Origin: Lingula anatina | Lineage: Eukaryota; Animalia; Brachiopoda | Assembly (NCBI GenBank): GCA_051362555.1 | Contig: CM120640.1 | Location: 56,584,788 to 56,648,787 of the forward strand | Direction of reading: 5' to 3' | DNA length: 64,000 bases | Shown here: positions 7,576-38,900 of the stretch, piece by piece | Layout: every line of letters starts with the position of its first letter | How positions within the stretch are numbered: the stretch's first letter is position 1 | Notes under the pieces: generated by a model | What the model was told of the DNA's origin: nothing | The model's database searches: none | What the model saw: only the letters and a program-made list of their open reading frames with translations | Made by a program: the position numbers and the translations under genes

Positions 7576-7793
7576 GCTGCCATTTTGAATCTCGTTTTAA
7601 GCATTTGTTTTCCTTCTATTTTTGCTACAGCATTTGTTAGCACTCATAATTTAAGTTAAGTTATTCTCATTACTCTTAGACTTTGTTGAAAAATCCACGC
7701 CTTACAACTTTACGTGTTATTAGTTTCTTTTTTTTTTTGTGATTTTAATCAGACATCTCGCGAGAAGATAAACGAGAGTTTGCCAATGAGAAA
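7576..7793. promoter_or_regulatory. Candidate bidirectional promoter NGRN/DCP2
   Basis: ~210 bp between divergent ATGs (7583 -, 7794 +); CpG-enriched flanks; YY1-like gctgccattttg at 7576-7587; perfect TCTCGCGAGA palindrome (BANP/Kaiso-type motif) at 7756-7765. Confidence 0.55.
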
Positions 7794-14424: not shown

Positions 14425-15044
14425 TTATGCCACTTCTATTTTCTTTGCTAGTTCCTGGATATCCTCATAAACCAGATCAAAATGCATCCACTGGTTGTCC
14501 ATTCCATCCAGGTACACTACAGGAAAAAATAGCAACATTTCATATTCACTTATTTAAATAACTCAAGATTTTCTGCATCAATAATGAAGAAGTAAAAACT
14601 GTCCGAAAAAATTAATCTGTCACTTTAAAAAAAAGTTTTGTCAATAACAAATGTTTTTCAATAACTTCTACACTAGGCTATACTTAAGGTTTCTTTCTTT
14701 AAAAATTAATATTGCACAATATGCTCAAAAACTGAAATTTTGATGCATAAAAAGAAGAAGAAATGGCCCTTTCAGATACACCCATGAGTTCTTACCAATA
14801 TCCTCCTGGTCTTTCAATTCAGCCTTGTTTTTCAAATACATTGGCCAGCAAATCTTCTCAAAGTAACCAGGAGGATCTGGAGGGTGGTAACGCCTTTTGC
14901 TAGATAAAAGCAAGCATAAACCTTATGATGCCTTTTCAGACAAAATATTTCATTCTAATATATATATATACACAATTAAAAAAACCTAAGACTATGATAT
15001 GTGAAAATCAGTCGGGGGAAGGGAGTTTGTCTTGAGTTTTTGGG

Positions 15045-15100
<56 letters not shown>

Positions 15101-18100
15101 AGTAAGTGGGAGATGGTCAATTGGGTGACCAACTTGAGGAAGGAATTTTACTTTATGTCCAATCTTTTATAAAATGATTTTGAAATGTTAAGAAAGTGAA
15201 ATTTCATATGTAACAAATTTTAAAATTCAACAGGAACTGAATTCATTGATTGTCAGATCCTACACAGTTTGTATGAACTCACCACCTTCTCTTAAAACAT
15301 TCCTCTTTGGGTAAAGTGAGGAAATATTTCTTGTCAAACACCTCTGCCAAAGGCCTGAAAGTATCGTGTTTAAATATATAATACAACAAGCAAACAAAAG
15401 ATAAAATCACTTAGGATATCTTGCCATTTTAGTAGCTCACAAATTAAACAGCATCTGAAGGGTAAACACCAAAATCCATGAATTCTATTACAAAAGAGTG
15501 ACTTAACTGATTTTAATACAACTTAGTCATAAAATTGAGACAAATATCACTTTGAATACCTGTAATTGTACAGTAGAAAACCTTCTACAAAGATAAGAGG
15601 TGGAGTCCCATCCTGACTGTGATAAGTACCAGGATCATTGATGGACTTCTGTACAACATTCATCATTTTCTCCATGTCTAATGCTGCCAGTTCTGGAAAA
15701 AAGTCATAACTTACCGTCCAGCTGCTTTCAAATTTATTGAATGCCACAAGGTGGTGGTGGTAACAAAAAAAAAATGAAATGATTCTATTAAATAAAAGAT
15801 GTTTTCACTAGAAAAACACTCAAGGAGTGAAGACCCCCCACTAAGGCAAGCCAATTCTCATTATTTCTAATTAATAATTGCCCAAATCATAGACACAGAG
15901 TCAAGATTTTACTGTTAATAATTTTAAAAAATCAAAAGCAGAACTCAAATCTTGGACGTCTCACAGATCAGCTGGCTATTCTAACCATCTAGCTACATTG
16001 TCCATGTGCCAACTTTTCAATTTAAAATGTGTACCAATAAAATAAGTCAAGCTGCTTTTGTAGCTTAGGGGACATTCAGAATAGAAGATTCGAGTATCAA
16101 CTGGTCCAAGGCTCAAATATGGTGGACCCTACATGAAAAGAAGAACGCTTAACCCTGTAATGGCCTCTCCGCCTCTCACACGCCTCCCCATGCGTCGTCC
16201 CTGCAGGGGCATATTAATAAAAGCTCCATTCGACCAGACACATGGGGAGGCGTGTTAGAGGCAGAGAGACCATTGCAGGATTAGGCTGTCTTCTTTTCTT
16301 GTAGGGTCCGCCATATTTGAGCCTTGGACCAGTTGATACTTGGATCTTCCATTCTGAATGGCCTCTTAGACCCAGTGCATGTGTGACAGGATGGGCGGGG
16401 GTAATAATGCATTTGTGACAGGACAGATAGAGGACATAGATGCAAAAAATTCCTGTACAATGCCCCATTTTACTAGTATAAATAGGTATAAATGGTAATC
16501 TGTATCACCCTCAAAATCTAATTTTTCCCTAGCCAATTTGTGACTTATCCTGAAAATGTCATCAAAATCCCTTTATAATGCTGTTAACAGACAAACAAAC
16601 TAATGTTAACTACTAATGGCAATGAAACATTACCTTCTTGTCAAAGGTGATAAATAATTCATAATTCATGAGTACATAACTTTGTAACCAGCTTTACATG
16701 TTAAAGATTAGTGATGAATTGTTTTCACATGGGGCTATTACAGAGAAACCCTTGCACCCAAACTATCTGGGGATCTGATCTCATACTTCCAACAGACCTG
16801 TAGCTAGGGTGGGGTTTAGGGGGTTTAAACAAACTACCCTTTTTACCAGATGTCTTCTTAGGGTAAAAAATTGATCTACATAAATGAAGGTTTCATGGAA
16901 AAAGGTCCACTTAAATAAAAAAAAATTAACATTGCTGGCTACCAGCCTATGTGATCAGAGTTTTTGGTTTAAAATAGCCCCAATGTGAACCAAGCTATAT
17001 TTACCATCCCAATTGGCATGTCCCAGCTCTGGGTCAGTGTGGAGACCTGCATGGTTGGGTGGCTATAGTGTTGAAACGGGATAAAAGTGAATACTAGTAA
17101 CATAAAAAATATTCATCAAATCATATTTTATAGTAATACAAAAAAGGACAGTAAAGACAAAGTCCTAACTACTGTAGTTGGACTTTTCATACAAATAATA
17201 TATAGTGTAAAACTAGAACACTCGGTTGGCAGAGATCACTGTCAAGGCAAAATGTAAATAACAAACTAAAACAATGAATTGTGATTCTTTCAAAAAGGAA
17301 ACCCAGGTTCAGTTAAAATTGCAATTACTTTTTTCTCTTCTTCAATATCACTTTCCTGAAAATATCATCAGAATTTGTGAACTTTTTGAGGGATAAAAAG
17401 AGATGCTGATGAAAACATACTCTCTTTTGTTTGCAGATGTAAACATTTACTTTCCACAAGCTTGAAGAAGTATTTCCTAAAATTTTTAACATAATGAACG
17501 TTGCCATGTAATTATATAAATTTTTAATCTTGGAAAGTCAATCACCTTTTATAAAACTTACCAAAAAGAATTCGTCTTGATGAATCACTGGACATCCTGG
17601 AAACTTCTGTTTCAACTTATATACTAATGTAGTTTTACCACCATTTGTTACCCTACAAAATAAAATAACCAATAAAGTCTGCTTTTTTCTTGATCGAATT
17701 GGCATTTCAATACATTAGTTCATAAAATCACCATATACATCCCAGCGCGTAAACAAAAGAAACCCTCATTTGCAAGCAAATACTAGCATATATAGCTTTA
17801 CTTAACTGTCGACGATGGTGGACAACCCAGCAATACTATTTCATACCCATTTAATTGTTAAGAATAACTACATTAATAACCTAGTAATATGTTTTTATGT
17901 CACCCCATTTTCTTGCAAATGTCTGTTTCCTGTGTTTATTACCTCCGCCAAGGAGGTTATGTTTTCACCCCTGTCTGTTTGTTTGTCATCAACATAACTT
18001 GATCAAAAAGTTATGGACCGATTTTGATGAAATTTTCAGGGTAGGTGGGAAATGGGTTAACTTAGAAGTGATTAGTTTTTGGTGATGATCCGGATCAATA

Positions 18101-18474
18101 ATCAATCAAAAATAATAAAAAAACGCTGCCTTGGCGGAGGTCTGCGCTCTCGGAGTGATTTTCTAGTTCATGTCTGGAGTCATTCTCACAAGTGTACTGC
18201 ACTGTATTGCATATTTTAGCATGACAGACTATGCGAGTCTCTTTGGGACATAAATGTTATGAAATTTGTTTCAATATCCTAAATCCATTTTAATCTTTTT
18301 TGTGCTATCGCAAAAGAGAGTAGTATTTTAAAGTATTTTTGCATGGTTTTTATGTTCATTGACCATTTAAGGTGACAGTCGAGCGTGTCTAGAAGGAGTA
18401 CATGCATGTACAGGAATATCTGTAAAACTTAAATTCGCCCACCCGCTAATTCCGATAACAAATGGTCTGGTCAT
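14425..18474 (-). CDS. NMRK1: Nicotinamide riboside kinase (NMRK1/2 family)
   Basis: Exons 18474-18443, 17652-17562, 17062-17005, 15692-15560, 15354-15283, 14899-14796, 14516-14425. VIGISGVTNGGKTT P-loop; IHQDEFF; NWDELAALDM; LIFVEGFLLYNY; RRYHPPDPPGYFEKICWPMY; VYLDG. Possible in-frame upstream start at 18558. NMRK1 versus NMRK2 cannot be distinguished in an invertebrate. Confidence 0.95.
15054..15098. repeat. (TA)n microsatellite
   Basis: Direct reading. Confidence 0.95.
15807..16653 (-). mobile_element. Degenerate HINE on minus strand hosting a nested MITE
   Basis: actagaaaaacactcaaggagtgaagaccccccactaagg resembles the reverse complement of the HINE 3' end; aaacattaccttcttgtcaaaggtgataa resembles the reverse complement of the 5' end; internal acagacaaacaaac. 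Confidence 0.55.
16068..16365. mobile_element. Palindromic PIF/Harbinger-like MITE family B
   Basis: Arms cattcagaatagaagat...ctctcacacgcctccccatg inverted as catggggaggcgtgttagag...atcttccattctgaatg; TTA on both flanks. Confidence 0.85.
17936..18167 (+). mobile_element. Helentron-type HINE (DINE-1-like architecture)
   Basis: 5' sub-TIR acctccgccaag with adjacent inverted ggaggt; gtct/gttt microsatellite; 3' sub-TIR cttggcggaggt; stem-loop cgctctcggagtg; ctagt end; T-rich insertion context. Confidence 0.8.
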
Positions 18475-18541
18475 CCTCGCAAACGTCCTCACGCATCTGT
18501 TCGGAATTCTACTTAAGCAAAAAATATATTTAACGTTGAAT

Positions 18542-18793
18542 CTACTGTGAAACAGCATCGAAGTCGTTGTCGTTCTCCTCTAAATCTTGTAACTGTTGAT
18601 CATCATCCACTGGGGTCGGACAACTGGTGTTCAATCTATCTAAAAATGAGTCCAAAAGTTTTTTATTCAAATGGTCAGTCTGCGAAATCTCACGCACTGG
18701 TTCCTCCTCTCCACCTACAGGACAGTGATCGTTGTTAGCATGTGCAGGAACATTGTTTGTTATCACATTTTCTTCTTTTGCACGGTCGTCCAT
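18542..18793 (-). CDS. Intronless 83-aa acidic small protein upstream of NMRK (unidentified)
   Basis: Strong Kozak (agtATGG); GC higher than flanking introns; helix-like core EISQTDHLNKKLLDSFLDRLN flanked by acidic low-complexity segments; candidate acceptor ttttattacttgtcag at ~18839. Confidence 0.6.
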   Translation of the reverse strand: MDDRAKEENVITNNVPAHANNDHCPVGGEEEPVREISQTDHLNKKLLDSFLDRLNTSCPTPVDDDQQLQDLEENDNDFDAVSQ

Positions 18794-18959
18794 ACTTTTT
18801 GAAATCTCGTTCAGCTTCGCGAGATTTCACATGGGCGACTGACAAGTAATAAAAGACGTCAATGACATGTTGAGATATACTTTGGTGAGCTATGAAAACA
18901 TAATCAGTTCAACACATATGTGTGTAAATAGTTATCCATTTCGTTCTTAATCACCTGAA

Positions 18960-19200
18960 ACATGTGTAATATGTGTAATTTATTAGATTCCCTTTTGTAA
19001 CAGATTTCACCATGTTGCTCAACACTGACAACAATATACCGTCAACCAGGTGCTCTTCATCCTCCAGTTCGAAATTTAGTTATCAGTGTAATCACGGTCA
19101 GTTTCTTTGAAAAAATCGTCACCACTTTATCTGCACGCGTGCGTGCACACACGCGCGTGCTTTTAGTACGTTGTTCGTTTGTTGTTGAAAAATTGACTAC
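18960..19200. promoter_or_regulatory. Candidate bidirectional promoter small-ORF+NMRK / CCDC124
   Basis: Only ~500 bp separate ATG 18793(-) and ATG 19301(+); CpG-rich gcacgcgtgcgtgcacacacgcgcgtgc (NRF1-like) at 19133-19160. Confidence 0.5.
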
Positions 19201-19300
19201 CTAAGATTTGATTGTACATGTACTCTACAATTATAAACAATTTTATTTAATTTTTGATGCACATGATATGGACATGGTATATGTTCAGTTTTAGGTCAAT

Positions 19301-21040
19301 ATGCCAAAGAAATTTAAAGGAGAGAACTCCAAGGCAAGTGAGGCCCGAGCTCGCAAGGCAGCTGTACAACATGCAGCCCAGGCAAAGAGAGAGCAGGAAC
19401 TAGAAGATGAGTATTGGAAGGATGAAGATAAACATGTGCAGAAGAAGCAACAGAGAAAGGTTGTGAAAAACGTTTCAAATAAGTAATAATGAAATCATTC
19501 TTCTAAAACCATTTCTTTCTCTTTGTGATGATTGAAGGGGATGGTGGGGAATATCAAATTGTGGTAAAACTGTAATGGTTTCTTGCTTGTGTAAAAGACT
19601 AATGTGGCATTATGATGGTTTCATGATGATCTGCTTTATATATTAAGATACTGTACAAGTTTTCAAAATGTTTGAAGGTTGTTAATCTTTATTTAAAAAC
19701 TAGTAATACTGCCATGTGATATTGATAAATCCCCTTTGTATTGTAGGATGAGAAAGAAAAAAAGAAAAATGAGCTTCTTGAGAGGAAACAGCAGCTGAAA
19801 CAGCTTCATGATGAGGAAATGAGTGCACTGCCTGGTAAAGCAAGTGCCAGACCTAGCAAGTTAACCAGAGCCCAGGTAGAAGCAAATGTAAAGAAAATGG
19901 AAGAAGCAAGTAAAGGTAATGTTGTCTCATATCAGTTGATATTTATGTTGATTTCTTTGATAAAGATCAACAATTAGTGTTTCATGTACCTGTATATTTA
20001 AGAATGTGGATGTAATCTGATTTGTACTTATGATTTTTATCAAGTTTTCTTTGCGCATTTGATTACTGTTTGAAATACTGGTAAGTTCATGGTATGAATT
20101 GCTTCAAAGTCATCCATTTTTTCAGATGTTTCATCAGTATTCAGTATCCCATAGACTTCCCCCAGGGAACTGAACTGAATACCTGACAACTTTGACAATG
20201 AGTTCAATTCCCTTCAAGGAACTCTATGAGATAGATGAAACATCGCAGCCCATCTGTACATGAATGCCCAACATGTGATTTATTTGTATTTTTATTTGCC
20301 TAAAACTACAACTGGATGAATCAAAATATACACTTTGATATGAAGTTTGTCATGTAACATTTCATTTGCAGCAGCTAAGAAAGAAGAGGATTTGACTCAC
20401 ATTGAAAAGCCATTGGAGGAGAATGTAAATGTAATTCAAGTGGAAGGAGTTGAGGCCAGATCTGTGGAGGATGCTATCGCAGCATTAAGGTGAGGAGTGC
20501 TGGGATTGTGCTAGTTGTGCCAGTAGTTATGAATTGATTGTGTTGCTTGAGTTGAATATGATGAAAAAAAAAACCATGGAAAAATATCAGCCTGGTTTAA
20601 ATACTCCCAAGTGGCAGTATAAGGAAACATATTGCTCAAAGCAGTTCATTATCGTTATGTCAGGGTACCTTATTTGTGGCATGATATCCTGTTTTTGGAT
20701 GTTTTTTTTTCGTGCACAATATTTACTTGAATAATAAGTCTCCTTTTCTCTTCACTTACTATTACATGTTCACTAATTTTTCAGCCAAACAATGGATTTA
20801 AGTTTAATCTATCGAAGTAGGGTTTACACCAGATTTTAAAACAACCCTGAGAACCAAGAACTTATGGTCTTCTTACAACATTAGGCCATTGTTGCTTTTG
20901 TCAATTCTGTTAAATGTTTTATTTGTGCTGTAAATAATGTTTGTTTTAGTTGTGCTATGATCAGTGTTAATTGGGTGCATGTTTCCACCAAACTGAAATT
21001 AACTCAGATTATTGATTACATTGCCAAAGTGACCCCCCCC

Positions 21041-21088
<48 letters not shown>

Positions 21089-21793
21089 GATGGAAACATT
21101 GTTGTGCAAAGTTTACAGAAAGAGCATACAGTGCTCATGTCTCCTTGTTAGCTTTCACATAAGGCCTCTTGCTGAAGTCAGTAATGGTTGTCACCCTCTG
21201 GTTGTATGCATTCAGTGGTGTAAAGAGTGGCCTGGGGCTACAAATAACTGAGTCAAAATATTTTTTTTAAGATATGAAACGTGTGGAAGCTGTTAAGGTG
21301 TAAGATTGACATGAAGATTGTGAAAAATTAAAAAAAAAAACTATTAGAATTCAGAAGTGTTGTACAAGTTGTGTACTGAACTGTACTTGATTTGCAATTA
21401 AATCCATGCAACCTGTTGATGACTTCTGCAGGGTTATAATTGCTAGAAGTGCAAAATTTCAGAAGCACTTGTTGTTTCTTGAGGTATAAAATGGCTTATT
21501 AAAAAGAGTGATATATTTACATTTAAAATTTGACTAAACATTGCTTTTGTGAAATAGCTTTTCTTGTTTTGTTTTCTAGTACCAATGATACAGAAGCAGT
21601 AGAGAGGCATCCAGAGAGGAGAGTCAAGGCAGCATATGCAGCTTATGAAGAAGAAAATTTGCCTCGTCTGAAACAGGAAAATCCAAATATGAGACTATCT
21701 CAGTTAAAACAGATGTTAAAAAAAGACTGGCAGAAATCTCCCCAGAATCCTTTGAATCAAAGGAGCTTAGCTTACAATGCCAAGGCCAGCTGA
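19301..21793 (+). CDS. CCDC124: Coiled-coil domain-containing protein 124 (Lso2/Oxs1 family)
   Basis: Exons 19301-19459, 19747-19915, 20372-20489, 21580-21793. MPKKFKGENSKASEARARK; EARSVEDAIAAL; ERHPERRVKAAYAAYEEENLPRLKQENPNMRLSQLKQMLKKDWQKSPQNPLNQ. Confidence 0.97.
20125..20245. mobile_element. Small degenerate inverted-repeat element
   Basis: gatgtttcatc..tcccataga..agggaactgaact inverted as agttcaattccct..tctatgaga..gatgaaacatc. Confidence 0.55.
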
Positions 21794-24689: not shown

Positions 24690-25962
24690 CATGGGCGTAA
24701 CTAGGCATACGCACGGATGCACTGTGCGTACAATTTTTCGGCCAACCATGATATTATTTTATATAAATTTAGTGTATTTTTCACAGAATATATATCGAAA
24801 ATCCTCTGCGAATTAAAGTCACCTGTATGTACAAATCATCTGTATACGCACAATTGTTCTGACCCCCCGTCTTGCATACTTTTATTCAACTGAGGTAAAC
24901 AATGCCTGTTACCTTTACAAGTCCTATCTTAATCGTCCATCTAACTGGAACATCCTTTACCTCTTAATTGGAGGGTTAAGTGGCCTTCAACTCTCCTGTT
25001 GTCATGAGAGTAACGAATGCACTATTGCTGACGATATTTATCTCAGGTAAAATCTACCTGTGTGTTATTTTCAAAGAGCAGCTCCCGTAGACCTGGGGGC
25101 ACTAGATAAAATCTGGACACCAGGTTTAATAAGGAGCTACAGAAACAAAGGAAGAATTTTTCCTGCAAAGCTTCAAAGAATTTCACACGGACTTGATCCA
25201 GCTTAGCCCTCCAAACTAACAGGATGGCATGGGCAATTTTCACAAACAAATAATTAAACTTAGGTCGCATTCACAACGAGTTGAGCCAGGCTTTACAAAT
25301 CCTGGGGACTAAATATGGCGGATGTACATGAAAGAAAAACCGCCTAATCTTTTAATAGTCTCTCCGCCTCTCACACGCCTCCCTAGCTGTGTCGTCTCAA
25401 TGGAGCCGAGATTTAATGACTGTCCCCCTGCAGGGACGATGTGTGGGGAGGCGTGTGAGAGGCGGAGAGACTATTAAAAGATTAGGCGGTTTTTCTTTCA
25501 TGTACAACTGCCATATTTAGTCCCCAGGATTTGTAAAGCCTGGCTCAACTCGTTGTGAATGTGATCTTAGATGTATCAGAGCTCTATTCTGTCATATAAT
25601 TGGTTGTTTTTGGCAGCCATGCACCCGCATGAAAGCTGGATGAAACCGCATTTAAGTTCAACTCAGAGGAGGATCCAGGATTATTCGAAGAAGGGAGGGG
25701 GGTCTGCTAATGCGAAGTTAGCCTCCTTTTAAATGAATATACCCTTCTGGGTATATAAAAATATTGAAACTTTATTAAATCGCGAGAACATTTTTGACTT
25801 AAATGATGATTTTATCATTAATGGAAATTTAGCTATGATGTGTGGTACATATGCTGTGATTACGCTGTCCTTCATCTGTTGCGTTAGTCTACATTTTGCT
25901 GTACATGCTGGGTATTTTAAAAATCTGTGCGCACAATTTTTAAAGGTCTGGTTACGCCCCTG
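24690..25962. mobile_element. Non-autonomous DNA transposon with nested MITE
   Basis: TIRs catgggcgtaac / gttacgcccctg; attaa repeated directly on both flanks; no transposase ORF. Confidence 0.65.
25263..25566. mobile_element. Palindromic MITE family B, near-perfect copy
   Basis: ~120-bp arms (attcacaacgagttgagccagg...gcctcccc) almost perfectly inverted; TTA TSD; shares ctccgcctctcacacgcctcccc and ccctgcaggg with 16068-16365. Confidence 0.88.
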
Positions 25963-26181: not shown

Positions 26182-29100
26182 TCACAACTCAGTTTTAGGA
26201 TGCTTATAAATATTTGCAAGTTTCATCGCATCAATTACCAGCTTTCTGAACTCTTTTGTTTCCACAGTTGTGTCAGAGTTGGCTCTGTACACATCTCTTG
26301 GTGCTTCAACTGTTAGTTCTTTGTGAGAATTATGCCACTCCAGGTATCCACCTCTCGCTTTTAGGATTTCTCCAAATTGCTTAAAGTTTAAAGAAGCATT
26401 GTATGGAACCAACTGTACAGCGACACTGCCCTCCGGGAGAAAGATACCATTCATGAGACCTGCTCCATTCATGCCTATGAGAACTGCATAGTTCTGAACC
26501 AACTGTAGCTGTTCTTGAACAGTCTTACCACCAAATTCAATCAAGTACAATTTTGTGATATCTTTCACAGACTTCACAAGCTCTTTTTCATTCAGAATCC
26601 TCCGTCGATTTGCCCTGAAATGACCATGGAAGCTGATTAATGCAGTCTTGAATAACATTCAATAACAAAATTCAAAACAAAGATGAATTGCAACAATTAT
26701 AACTATGTCTGACCTATTGCTGGCTCCCAAACTTGAACTGGAACATTGAGTATACCAGTGGGTGACATTTTGTCTTTTTTGTATACAAAGACAAGAAATC
26801 AAAATTTTATGTGCATGGACTACTTGTGGTAGTTCTCAGTAGAGTCCTACTGTGCATCAAGATGATGACAAATTTTGTTTGCAAAAAAAAAAAAAAAATT
26901 ACTCTGCCCGATTTGCCACATTTTTGTCTTAACTTGTCCTGAACTACTGTAGTGACATCAACGGGTGGGTGGAGTCCATCACTTAGTAAAAGGTCAATTA
27001 CGAATCACACCTCATCATCTCTCACACTAATTTGAAATGATAATTCCTACATGCCTACCTTGATATCAGTCCTACTTTCCTTGGTTTAGTTGGCGTTGTC
27101 ACATGGAGCATGGTTCTCATATAATTGACATAATTAAAAACCAAATATTTATCATTCCAGTCATACCTGGGAGTCTGAAAAAAAAAAAAAAAAAAAAAAC
27201 AATATGGAATTTTATTTTCATTTTTTTTTCATTTTTAAATGGGGGGGTCTTTGACAAAAAAGCAATGCAGATTTAAGATTGAAGCATGTCTCGGTCAACT
27301 CTACAGTGGTGTTTTAACAAAATTTAAAAAATGCGATAAATTGGCAATCCCATCTTCCGAACTTGTTTTTTTTATGCAGAACATACAATTTACACTGTAG
27401 GATTATCTGCATGATGTCTTTTAACCTGTGTTAGTAGTGATAACAAGGTTTTGTATGTTTTGGTGGCAGAGACAGCTAGCGAAGCCAGTGACAGCTTCAG
27501 GGAAAATAAACTGGCAGTATATTTAATCATGACCTTACCCCAAAATATATTTCCTTAAAACAGATCTTGGTTTCTTTCTTAACAAAATCTTTCTGGAGTG
27601 GTTTCATGTTATAGTCACCTGTTAAAAGCTGTAAAAGATTGTTAAATAAATTAATTGATCACAAATCATTGTATTTGAAAACTAATTTTATGAAAACATT
27701 TGTTGGATCATTAAATCATGCTTCAAACATCCATAACATTTTTAATTCTTAATAAGCACAAAAAAGTAAAAATCACCAATCTGTCATGTTTAAGTGATTC
27801 TTCATGATTCAGCATAGATGATAACAATTCAAATCAAAGGTTAAGAATAACACACTACTATGTATATATAGTAACTATTATGCATATATACTATAATACA
27901 GTACCTGCATCAACTGCATCCAATACTTGTTTTCATTCTGAAATGCTGGGGTTTCCCAATTAATTTTCTTTAAAATAATGGAGAAAAAAAGAATTTAAAA
28001 TAGCTGCTTAATTGTGTTCTTATTTTCAAATCACCCTCAACTCTATCCATTATTCAAATACTGTGATATATGTAAAATTGGCTCACCCACTCAGCATAGG
28101 TAAAATGGCAGTATGTGTATTATTTTACTGTAACTTTAACTTTTTTAATGATCTTTTCTTCTTTTAATTCAACACCTATTCAAAAATTCAAATAATGCAA
28201 TAAATCTGCATCTAATGAAAAATGACATTTTTATGCCCCCATTTATCAAAATACCAAAAGATGTGTGGCTATCAGATGTATTATTGATCATGCCAACAGC
28301 TAGACCACAATGTGCAGTTTGAAGCATCAAGGTCATGGCAGTCAGTTAAATTTCCTTTTGTTAAACACAGGTGTCAGACTATAATGGAGAGTTAGTGTAT
28401 TAAGGTAATTATTCTTTCCAGGTGTCTGCAGATCATGTCAAAAACCCTCTTCAGATGTGACATATTTATTAAAATTAATATCTTCATCAATATGCCTGTT
28501 ATACAGAGGTACAGTGTACTTGAGATTGAACTCAATGTTTCTTTATCTTTATCAGACTTAACTGTTAGCTTACATTTACTGTCCAGGTAATCTTTTCAAA
28601 AGTTTTATTCAGTGAATAATGTAAAATTCCAAAAATCTAAAAAATAAAAGTCATTCTGAGGTTTAACAGTTCAAACATACAGGTGGACACAGGGAGAGAG
28701 GGGGGGGGGGGCGGGGGTATCTTCAAACCAATTAAAAGGTTCAGCACTCATCTGTCTCAAAATGGAGAGAAAAGACAGATATCATATCCACAGAACTATT
28801 CCAAAATGCCCCAAAGTGTACCATACTTTCCAAAATTTATTTGCAAGAAGGGTGAAGAGTATTCTCCTTTCAAATTACACTAACACATTATATTAAATAT
28901 GTAATCTTTATAATTACCATGATACATTTATATGATTAGATATTCAACATTGGTCAAATCGTGAAAACAGATAAAGAAAAGTTCATGCACTTCTGACAGA
29001 ATGATGAGGTTATTTGATAAGAATATTTCAACTGATTTTTTAAAATCATTTGGCAAGATATGAACAGTTTTTCTATTTTGGTATAAACAAGTTAATGAAT

Positions 29101-35939: not shown

Positions 35940-38900
35940 CTGAAAGAGAGTCAGATACTCTCAGTACAGAAAATATATCTTGATTACAATCATTTTATTG
36001 TCTGAAGAGCCTGAAACAGGTGAAAACGTTTATGATGATTAATTAACTTTTCCAATCATTATGTGACTTGTTTTGACTAAAAAAAAAAATTATATTATAT
36101 TATATTATATTATATTATATTATATTATATTATATTATATTATATTATATTATATTATATTATATTATATTATATTATATTATATTATATTATATTATAT
36201 TATATTATATTATATTATATTATATTATATTATATTTTTGGGGTTCTGACCTAATCCCTGGATGTATTTTCTCTGTGAAGAGGAGAAATAATTAATTATG
36301 CTTTTAGAAAGTGAAGATAATGAAGATTTCACAACTTGCAGAGTTTTCTCCTTTAAATTACTGGCTTAGATTATATAATTTTTTTTAAAGATTGGACAAA
36401 CTAACAGATGTTTGTGAACTTGAAGATTGGATCTGGGATGTGGCATGGATGTCCAATGGTAAGGTAAGGACTATGCAGGTGGATTTGCAGGTAATCATGA
36501 GTTTTTATAGTATGGTAGATGTACCACTACAGTTGACAGTCATGATGTGTGTAGTGTGGTAGATGTACCACTACAGTTGACAGTCATGATGTGTGTAGTG
36601 TGGTAGATGTACCACTACAGTTGACAGTCATGATGTGTGTAGTGTGGTAGATGTACCACTACAGTTGACAGTCATGATGTGTGTAGTGTGGTAGATGTAC
36701 CACTACAGTTGACAGTCATGATGTGTGTAGTGTGGTAGATGTACCACTACAGTTGACAGTCATGATGTGTGTAGTGTGGTAGATGTACCACTACAGTTGA
36801 CAGTCATGATGTGTGTAGTGTGGTAGATGTAACACTACAGTTGACAGTCATGATGTATGTAGTGTGGTAGATGTAACACTACAGTTGACAGTCATGATGT
36901 GTGTAGTGTGGTAGATGTACCACTACAGTTGACAGTCATGATGTGTGTAGTGTGGTAGATGTACCACTACAGTTGACAGTCATGATGTGTGTAGTGTGGT
37001 AGATGTAACACTACAGTTGACAGTCATGATGTGCATAGTGTGGTATGTAGATGTACCACTGCAGGTGAATTGGCAGACAGTCATTACTAGAGAATAATGT
37101 GACAATTAAATGATGACAGTGTAGATATTTACCATGAAAGACTTTGCTATTTCCTGTTTAGTATTTTCTTCATTTAATTGAAGCATTCATTGTTAAGTTA
37201 TTTTACATTGAAATTTGCTATACAGAAGGGCTTGATGTTGCCTGTTTTTTCCCAGATCAAACTGTTTTGTTTACCATTCAACCACTTCATTTTAGTCAAC
37301 ACTTACCCTGGCACTTGCTCTGGGACATAATGTTGTTCTACATTGGGACTGGCAGAGGAACACAATTCTTCACAGGGTGAAATGTGAAGAGAAATGCATT
37401 TTGTATCCTTTTTTTAAATAAAAGATCATAAAAATCATGCAAACATTAACAAAGAATAAAGAAATTTAAGAAAACATAAATTTGCAGTTTGCAAACTAGA
37501 AAATGATTTATTTTCCAGTTGAAAAAGGATTTATATGTGCATATTTAGACACCTTATTTTTTAAATAGGTATTTATAATTCATAGAAATTGAGAGGTTCT
37601 TAACAACATTTGAAGATATTCTGCTAGATTTATCGGTCACACATGGAGTGACCTGGTCTTAGCAGCAGGTACAGTGTTTAACCAAGTTGTCCTATGGCCA
37701 GTCTGTGGTCAACAAAATAAAGAGGGTCATCAGAAGGTCATTCATAGACTATCTGGTCATGAGGTAAGTTAAAAGATTAAAAAATAACTTTTTTTATCTT
37801 GTATAATAAGATTAGTTGTCACATTTCACTCTTGTACTAAGGCATTTAACAATATCTGTTAAGAATTGAATGTCATGTTAATTTTTTTCTTTTAATTGTT
37901 TGATGTTTTTCTTCTTTGCAGGGTGTCATTTTCTCCATTGCTTTCAGCAACCATAATATGTGTCTTTGTTCCGTCTCTGATGATCGCAGTATCAGGATAT
38001 GGCAACTATGTGTAATACCTGAAGGGCAAACTGACGGAAGATTGTCCTTAAACTCTAAAGGTCTTACAGGTGCAGCAATAGACCAGAACTCCAAAAGATG
38101 CACAGATGGAAATTTGACTATGCCAGGTCATTTCAGAAAGAAGGAAATCCCCATGGATGTCTGGTGCAGGATGCAGTATGAGTTGAAACATGTTATGTAT
38201 GGCCACAGTGCACGTGTGTGGGATGTCAAGCTACTCAGGGAATTGCTGGTCACTGTGGGAGAAGTAAGTTTGATGGTTTGAAAGTAAGGGTGATCCATTT
38301 TGGTTTTAAATGAAGAATTAATGTATTTGTGATATCAGTTTCCAAACTTGGAGATTTGTTTTATGTATTTCAGAATCTTTGAAAACATAAAAAATCATTG
38401 ACATTTTTCTGTTAATGTTTCTGGTTTATTTTTAGGATTCAACCTGCTTGGTTTGGAATTATGAGGGCCAAGTTTTACAAAAATTCAAAGGACACAAGGT
38501 GGAATATTTCAGATTGTGTTTGCCTGTAAACTGTTATTACACAGCATTTTAAAAACCACATCAAGTAACACATAATGTGAATGTGTTGCAATACAGCTTG
38601 TTAATTTTGATGAAAAGTTTTGATCTGGATTTTTTCAAAAATTTAGGTGTATGTAAGCTTCTTTTGTGTAATAATCATTTGTCACTTAAATGCATTTGTC
38701 ATTTAATGATTTTTTAAGGGCAAGAGCATATGGAGTTTGGCAGTAAATGAGACAGACTCTTTAGTGGTATGTATTCAAGGCAAACCTAAATCATGGTAAA
38801 TAACATACATGTAGAATTCGGCCAAAACTATTAAAATGAGACACTTTCTCCAATTACTGAACATTCTTTGCAGTTAAAAATGTGTCAGTTTTGCAGGGAA

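Follow-up and report, generated by a model that had tools for sequence, protein, structure and literature searches.

Short open reading frames (ORFs) in the 5' leaders of unrelated housekeeping genes can encode microproteins that act in trans elsewhere, as exemplified by the ASDURF-ASNSD1 and SNURF-SNRPN pairs. Dicistronic mRNAs are common in flies, with 159 pairs counted in the available text of PMC4528330, which also presents MOCS2A/MOCS2B as two ORFs on one mRNA and the fly gene CG12016 as dicistronic with the upstream ORF CG42456 (about 80 codons, 93 nt from stop to start). The N-terminus of CG12016, as given in the accessible portion of PMC2276209, nearly matches that of the Lingula nicotinamide riboside kinase (NMRK). 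With regard to the initiation factor eIF2, the available part of bioRxiv 10.1101/2023.12.15.571226 describes a short repeated helix of PPP1R15A, embedded in acidic disorder, that binds a groove of eIF2gamma, the Phe and Trp (i, i+4) of its SAFLKAWVY sequence being placed in the groove, which is conserved in eukaryotes and older than the R15A ligand. PPP1R15B binds eIF2 via a short helix, H1 (PMC7615683, in its accessible part), and CDC123 assembles eIF2 through binding eIF2gamma (PMC8844851, PMC12860950) and often bears variable disordered inserts (PMC4431377), according to the accessible portions of these papers.

We analyzed a window of 64,000 nucleotides from the brachiopod Lingula anatina (all positions refer to this whole stretch), an AT-rich, intron-containing animal DNA in which an intact 83-codon ORF (18793-18542, minus strand, ATG to TAG) lies just ahead of NMRK. 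The reading that we prefer, with a probability of roughly 45%, combines a two-way promoter, a bicistronic RNA, and a helix acting on the eIF2-assembly machinery. A compact promoter at about 18790-18840 would drive CCDC124 one way and the microprotein-NMRK RNA the other, and the first exon of the minus-strand RNA would carry the conserved ORF immediately before NMRK. The protein likely made from this ORF would be disordered for the most part, with a single conserved helix whose target would be CDC123 or the CDC123 client eIF2gamma instead of NMRK, and the NMRK start would be reached by leaky scanning past the cap-proximal AUG together with reinitiation.

A probable shared first exon and two-way promoter

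The microprotein ORF has a strong Kozak context (A at -3, G at +4) and ends 67 nt before the NMRK ATG at 18474, which is one base out of frame with it. The intercistronic spacer (18475..18541, minus strand) is covered by RNA, contains an out-of-frame ATG at 18496, and lacks AATAAA and ATTAAA, so that the initial annotation of an intact ORF in strong context, followed by 67 nt that lack a poly(A) signal and then by NMRK in another frame, was borne out. An AATAAA at 18667 lies within the ORF because of the Asn-Lys-Lys codons there. The initial annotation mentioned neither this element nor the seven further ATGs between the two starts, among them that at 18496 and an NMRK-frame ATG (18556..18558, minus strand) that overlaps the microprotein end and from which NMRK would gain 28 residues.

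The NMRK coding region (14425..18474, minus strand) comprises seven exons, at 18474-18443, 17652-17562, 17062-17005, 15692-15560, 15354-15283, 14899-14796, and 14516-14425. NMRK is a real gene, since these seven GT-AG exons keep a frame of 193 amino acids open and the intronless relative L016 matches human NRK1 (E 1e-37); introns 1 and 2 were seen in reads. Intron 3 contains, at 16160-16290, about 60 nt repeated in inverted orientation with flanking near-repeats, probably a small mobile element. Intron 1 harbors an interspersed repeat (17910-18180), at which both-strand reads from many other copies accumulate with loose ends and many differences.

Transcription was assessed with four of nine same-species RNA-seq runs mapped to 17000-19700, using 6-25% of each run; strand was set in the three stranded runs from the NMRK and CCDC124 exons on opposite mates, and RNA 5' ends were estimated from 91-nt bins. 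Minus-strand depth in these three runs extended without a gap from 18443 through the spacer and the ORF to about 18790, and the donor at 18442 was joined to 17652, in NMRK exon 2, by 127 reads from the four runs (52, 5, 23, and 47). The first exon of the shared mRNA thus spans 18443..18800 on the minus strand, with an approximate 5' end. The ratio of ORF depth to NMRK exon 2 depth was 0.93 (X1), 1.34 (X2), and 1.23 (X4), and hence nothing points to a dominant start site within the ORF. No read or pair covering both the ORF and the splice junction was seen (longest side 73 nt). Based on the unbroken RNA cover spliced into NMRK exon 2, we consider it very probable that the locus produces one bicistronic mRNA, in line with the single transcript originally proposed for the microprotein and NMRK; both ORFs would be translated from one molecule. 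At 18575, inside the ORF, 19 of 78 X2 molecules start at one site, which may reflect duplicates or a real 3' end.

Reads of the minus strand extend to about 18788-18800, and those of CCDC124 on the plus strand start at 18839. CCDC124 begins with a non-coding first exon (18839..18884, plus strand) that is spliced GT..AG to 19289, ahead of the ATG at 19301; this junction was supported by 68 reads in the three stranded runs, 8 of 13 X1 molecules end at 18839, and the Pfam Ccdc124 match lies at 21527-21790. Because the CCDC124 exon starts at 18839 and minus-strand depth was zero in the bin 18820-18910 in all three stranded runs, the shared promoter is confined to the roughly 50 bases that separate the divergent RNAs, at about 18790-18840. 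Between the two RNA 5' ends lies TCTCGCGA (18817..18824, minus strand), which we take to be a housekeeping promoter motif and which has four matches at three places in the window versus 0.04 expected. The initial annotation had placed the promoter shared with CCDC124 further upstream, a position that the reads do not support. The other two TCTCGCGA(GA) elements, at 7756-7765 (about 50 nt before a plus-strand ATG) and 25780-25787, likely mark other gene starts. Other genes in the window include glycosyltransferase 61 exons at 26185-26658 (minus strand) and WD40 exons at 37904-38278 (plus strand). Minus-strand depth of about 2.3 was also observed at 19002-19183 within CCDC124 intron 1, in X1 only and unjoined to the ORF exon.

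The initial annotation had further described a start-stop mini-ORF and a splice acceptor ahead of the microprotein. The ATG-TGA sequence (18827..18832, minus strand) and the AG before 18839 are both present, but they lie in the bin of zero minus-strand depth, outside the RNA supported by reads. No joint within the ORF, within the spacer, or into 18839 was found among the 15 strongest of 31 joints. The proposed shared leader exon with alternative 3' splice sites found no support in the reads.

The microprotein ATG lies at the outermost limit of the RNA seen, and read ends accumulate five bases into the ORF, 18788 being the end of 5 of 14 X1 molecules and of 5 of 25 X2 molecules. Transcription starting at or just inside the ATG would leave the Lingula ORF mostly untranslated and the RNA a monocistronic NMRK message with a long leader, a reading also favored by an Arg34His allele and by the absence of ATG depletion in the window (see below). 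However, 20 of the 25 X2 molecules pass 18788, by about 11 nt on rough arithmetic for this run, and reads from RNA-seq commonly end somewhat before the cap. An intact core and allelic indels that preserve the frame speak against it as well. We therefore regard an untranslated ORF as highly unlikely and retain the bicistronic reading.

A conserved family of microproteins

The full HMMER scan with the 83-residue peptide revealed 53 representative homologues (E<=0.001), for which a single-sequence word search had returned none, and a profile search identified 506 proteins at E<=0.01 among 2540 candidates. ORFs of such length are common by chance (mean 4.9, or about 5, per shuffled 64 kb), so it is these homologues, rather than its length, that identify the ORF as a member of a real coding family. 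The profile listing comprised 120 of the 506 matches. Named members include the molluscs and annelid Elysia, Arion, Mactra, and Lamellibrachia; the coral, hemichordate, and insects Oculina, Saccoglossus, Drosophila willistoni (GK20681), and Timema; and the unicellular holozoans Syssomonas and Stephanoeca. Judged from these sequences, the family is apparently older than animals. No vertebrate or yeast name appears among the matches listed, which does not amount to absence.

Conservation is concentrated in a 22-residue core (residues 34-55; 18629..18694, minus strand), with a mean identity of 0.77 versus 0.17 in the flanks across 69 relatives. D40, N43, L46, and L47 are invariant in 70 of 70 sequences, Phe50 is 99% conserved, and position 54 is Leu, Ile, or Met. 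A single amphipathic helix (38-56) was predicted amid disorder, with pLDDT of 84-91 in blocks 31-50, and the flanks are acidic and disordered, in agreement with the amphipathic core between acidic tails noted at the outset. Comparison of the core with 17 loci gave codon-position identities of 0.66/0.91/0.43 and pS of 0.92 versus pN of 0.17; the loci were picked by protein match, which makes the low pN circular in part. Insertions that distinguish alleles within the ORF measure 3 or 6 nt (two sites with 10 rows in total, of which three apparently stem from a single 6-nt insertion split up), and an X7 allele changes the conserved Arg34 to His in 9 of 27 reads. The homologue search and the selection check suggested in the initial annotation thus revealed a conserved peptide with a coding signature, the latter with the circularity mentioned. 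The microprotein is almost certainly a real conserved protein.

The family could not be named originally, and this still holds: no Pfam or PDB family matches the microprotein profile, and the Atlas gave no usable match. A ZNF276 match (E 0.62) was taken as chance, as were the Pfam matches of the repeat protein P0001, the best of which (DUF3245) was barely over the cut-off in one of 12 proteins. Viral contigs contained no relative of the peptide or of the CDC123-like protein P0020 described below. A literature search, mostly without subscription papers, retrieved no work on the motif, on the member accessions, or on NRK with bicistronic; a broader search found the family in no title or abstract start, with one thread reaching the fly locus only. 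With no domain entry, structure, or paper found, the family is apparently undescribed.

Two variants of the architecture were observed. Five stand-alone members (P0001, P0002, P0003, P0062, and P0063) have two or three tandem helix copies, which suggests that binding may be multivalent; overall, the motif was matched twice or more in 6 of 225 proteins. A longer subfamily of 215-243 residues (P0044, P0151, P0152, and L023:146-793) has R-x-R-S/T-x-S repeats in a Ser-rich N-terminus, and its motif is followed by a C-terminal tail that is also conserved.

Downstream genes and the initiation of NMRK

The genomic context of the homologues was examined at 27 loci, with the NRK exon 1 pattern run on 22 and the profile on all of them. 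NRK was found downstream on the same strand at six loci (L001, L010, L011, L013, L016, and L017), a count that is a floor because 17 of the 27 have <1.4 kb of downstream sequence. The NRK ATG follows the microprotein stop by 32 nt in L010, 13 nt in L013, and 91 nt in L016, and the distance is 0.9-3.3 kb in L011 and L017; NRK in L001 was recognized by the first-exon pattern only, and L014 gave a weak NRK exon 2 match (E 0.01). The L013 locus also has a divergent CCDC124, thus reproducing the three-gene layout of the Lingula window. L016 contains both ORFs and, being intronless, is probably cDNA. Among the ten loci with at least 1.9 kb downstream, NRK was present in four, the weak NRK match in one, and TIPIN in one (L024). 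The remaining four (L008, L015, L020, and L022) showed neither gene, with Gemin7 lying 2.4 kb on in L015; NRK is absent from the 7.9 kb after L008 and from about 6 kb after L020 and L022. No common neighbor emerged from Pfam scans that covered 150 of the 309 frames downstream and 114 of the 375 upstream. The check suggested in the initial annotation, whether homologues sit 5' of NMRK, came out positive at six of the 27 loci. As far as these genomic sequences indicate, the downstream partner switches between lineages (NRK, TIPIN, or none seen), the NRK pairing being kept in several animal lineages and exchanged in others.

In Mytilus, 6 of 14 NRK1 records, representing five species, carry the motif as an in-frame fusion, and in Timema a TIPIN model begins with it; these fusions may be real isoforms or merged models. 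Gene models thus mishandle the family, which is either missed or fused to NRK1 or TIPIN. A splice donor is located 32-44 nt past the microprotein stop in L004, L014, L017, and L019. Post-stop donors are in phase 2 of the microprotein frame in four of five loci (phase 0 in L005), and NRK intron 1 has the same phase; exon skipping with readthrough could generate a fusion like that in Mytilus.

The position of NRK behind the microprotein at six of 27 loci and in the window, together with the Mytilus fusions, could mean that the microprotein works with or regulates NRK and is encoded together with it, as MOCS2A is with MOCS2B. We consider this improbable given the occurrence of TIPIN, or of no nearby NRK, at the other loci and given the fly CG12016, which is dicistronic with a different, hydrophobic peptide in the available parts of PMC2276209 and PMC4528330.

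The upstream position and the conserved peptide sequence would also fit a cis-acting uORF, at which ribosome stalling tunes NMRK translation. This appears very improbable, since the core ends 28 residues before the stop and is followed by a variable tail, and the motif is found ahead of various downstream genes or none, as tandem repeats in 6 of 225 proteins, and inside CDC123. For the same reasons (distance of the core from the stop, variable hosts, tandem copies, and presence in CDC123), a trans-acting binding motif fits better.

Out-of-frame ATGs within the ORF number 7 versus 21.3 expected in eight loci with a linked downstream gene (Poisson P about 3e-4, for loci that are not independent) and 42 versus 41.6 expected in eleven other loci. 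Eight partial, redundant, intron-split, or atypical loci were left out of the count, and L001 and L010 were counted from the second Met. The depletion in the linked loci fits what selection for leaky scanning would produce. The Lingula window has 6 out-of-frame ATGs in the ORF versus 5.0 expected and one more in the spacer; since depletion is absent, plain leaky scanning fits Lingula poorly, and NMRK there would need reinitiation after short internal frames or a start at 18558. Leaky scanning combined with reinitiation is a putative mechanism, which the ATG depletion supports in the relatives but not in Lingula itself.

A possible link to CDC123 and comparison with known systems

The lead toward a function comes from four CDC123-like proteins. 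One of them, P0020 from the choanoflagellate Stephanoeca, is related to CDC123 both by its D123 domain (E 1e-44) and by a match to the human protein (E 1e-33), and two copies of the motif lie between its catalytic core and C-terminal tail. In P0147, P0153, and P0040, the CDC123-like tail of P0020 comes after the motif (E 6.5e-8, 5e-6, and 0.016 among 223 proteins). The four proteins are unalike outside the motif and the tail, and their motifs score 26-56 bits versus at most 3.5 in 2000 shuffles. The P0020 sequence derives from a transcript assembly and covers only positions 146-278 of the D123 profile, the N-terminal half of the domain being missing; its single-sequence fold had a mean pLDDT of 41. 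Since P0147, P0153, and P0040 are C-terminal fragments with no D123 match or organism name, they may represent one lineage and one insertion event. The human and S. pombe CDC123 chains in PDB gave no motif match.

The motif copies in CDC123 are internal, a pattern that would be expected when a binding partner has been captured, whereas in the NRK and TIPIN fusions the motif is at the N-terminus, where an upstream ORF would place it. Because the helix also sits inside CDC123, the microprotein would be linked to eIF2 assembly rather than to the kinase, with CDC123 or eIF2gamma as the putative binding partner; we hold this role tentatively, at slightly less than even odds.

The microprotein might instead be real and bicistronic and have a target unrelated to NMRK and eIF2, in which case the CDC123 insert would be a one-off capture in one protist lineage. 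Consistent with this, the family moves with several housekeeping genes and fuses to them (NRK models in Mytilus and a TIPIN model in Timema), the D123 match and the organism name are found in only one of the four CDC123-like proteins, and a helix with hydrophobic residues at i, i+1, i+4, i+5, and i+8 is a generic binding pattern. The retention of the CDC123 copies in four otherwise unalike proteins, their internal position, and their doubling in P0020 argue against it, as does the N-terminal placement of the NRK and TIPIN fusions, which an upstream ORF predicts. We judge an unrelated target to be unlikely, though worth serious consideration, and continue with the eIF2-assembly machinery as the preferred target.

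A bolder version of the eIF2 reading, which we rate as quite doubtful, would make the family an ancient, pre-animal eIF2gamma ligand, whose helix, free-standing or tethered to CDC123, would sit in the conserved groove of eIF2gamma that the GADD34 repeats of mammals came to use later. It would act as a cofactor or brake of eIF2 assembly and would have stayed unannotated as a passenger ORF on changing housekeeping mRNAs. As a separate observation, eIF2gamma encoded on the giant-virus-type contigs L028, L029, L031, L032, and L033 is extended at its C-terminus by a long segment with a terminal Cys-rich finger, which by eye resembles eIF2beta/eIF5.

These results add a microprotein family widely conserved in invertebrates and their single-celled relatives, and the internal CDC123 fusion gives this anonymous ORF a testable lead to a function. 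Binding to CDC123 or eIF2gamma would make the microprotein a new player in eIF2 biogenesis and in stress-response control, and an annotated Drosophila member exists for tests.

Like PPP1R15A and PPP1R15B, the microprotein has a short, hydrophobic-faced helix in acidic disorder that is sometimes repeated, and its core includes (S/A)FL..(L/I), a likeness drawn by eye. Unlike PPP1R15A, it has no PP1-binding core and a longer conserved N-terminal part (RE-I-T-Q-T-D-H-L-N), and its core has no Trp, position 54 being Leu, Ile, or Met in place of the Phe/Trp pairing at i, i+4; a search of PDB with the core profile did not retrieve PPP1R15A/B peptides. The resemblance to CDC123 (D123, PF07065) is confined to the motif, which lies in the loop between the catalytic core and the C-terminal tail of the choanoflagellate protein; the 83-residue microprotein has no ATP-grasp (D123) domain and shares only the motif with P0020.

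At the level of gene organization, CG42456, which looks like DPM2, was rejected as an orthologue of the Lingula microprotein because the sequences are unrelated. The fly locus resembles that of Lingula in having an NRK-type gene behind a conserved ORF of about 80 codons on one mRNA, as described in the accessible text of PMC4528330. It differs in the peptide, which is hydrophobic and without the motif in the available part of PMC2276209, three supplementary files of which did not contain the motif. Since the upstream peptide of the fly NRK is a different one, NRK leaders would seem to host unrelated passengers and, to the extent of these partial sources, to have done so at least twice. The MOCS2 products form one enzyme and stay together, whereas the Lingula-type pairing is not fixed: TIPIN or no NRK is found at other loci, and the fly NRK has a different uORF. 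Of the precedents cited in the initial annotation, MOCS2A/B is therefore a misfit, given a downstream partner that varies by lineage (NRK, TIPIN, or none seen), and ASDURF-ASNSD1 or SNURF-SNRPN is the appropriate comparison. As in these two pairs, a microprotein ORF conserved as protein lies in the 5' leader of an unrelated gene, and both ORFs are contained in one spliced RNA. The Lingula microprotein differs from ASDURF and SNURF in belonging to another family (with no Pfam or PDB match), in the variation of its host gene, and in its occurrence inside CDC123. The bicistronic layout is thus already known, while the family that occupies it is apparently undescribed and its host genes change.
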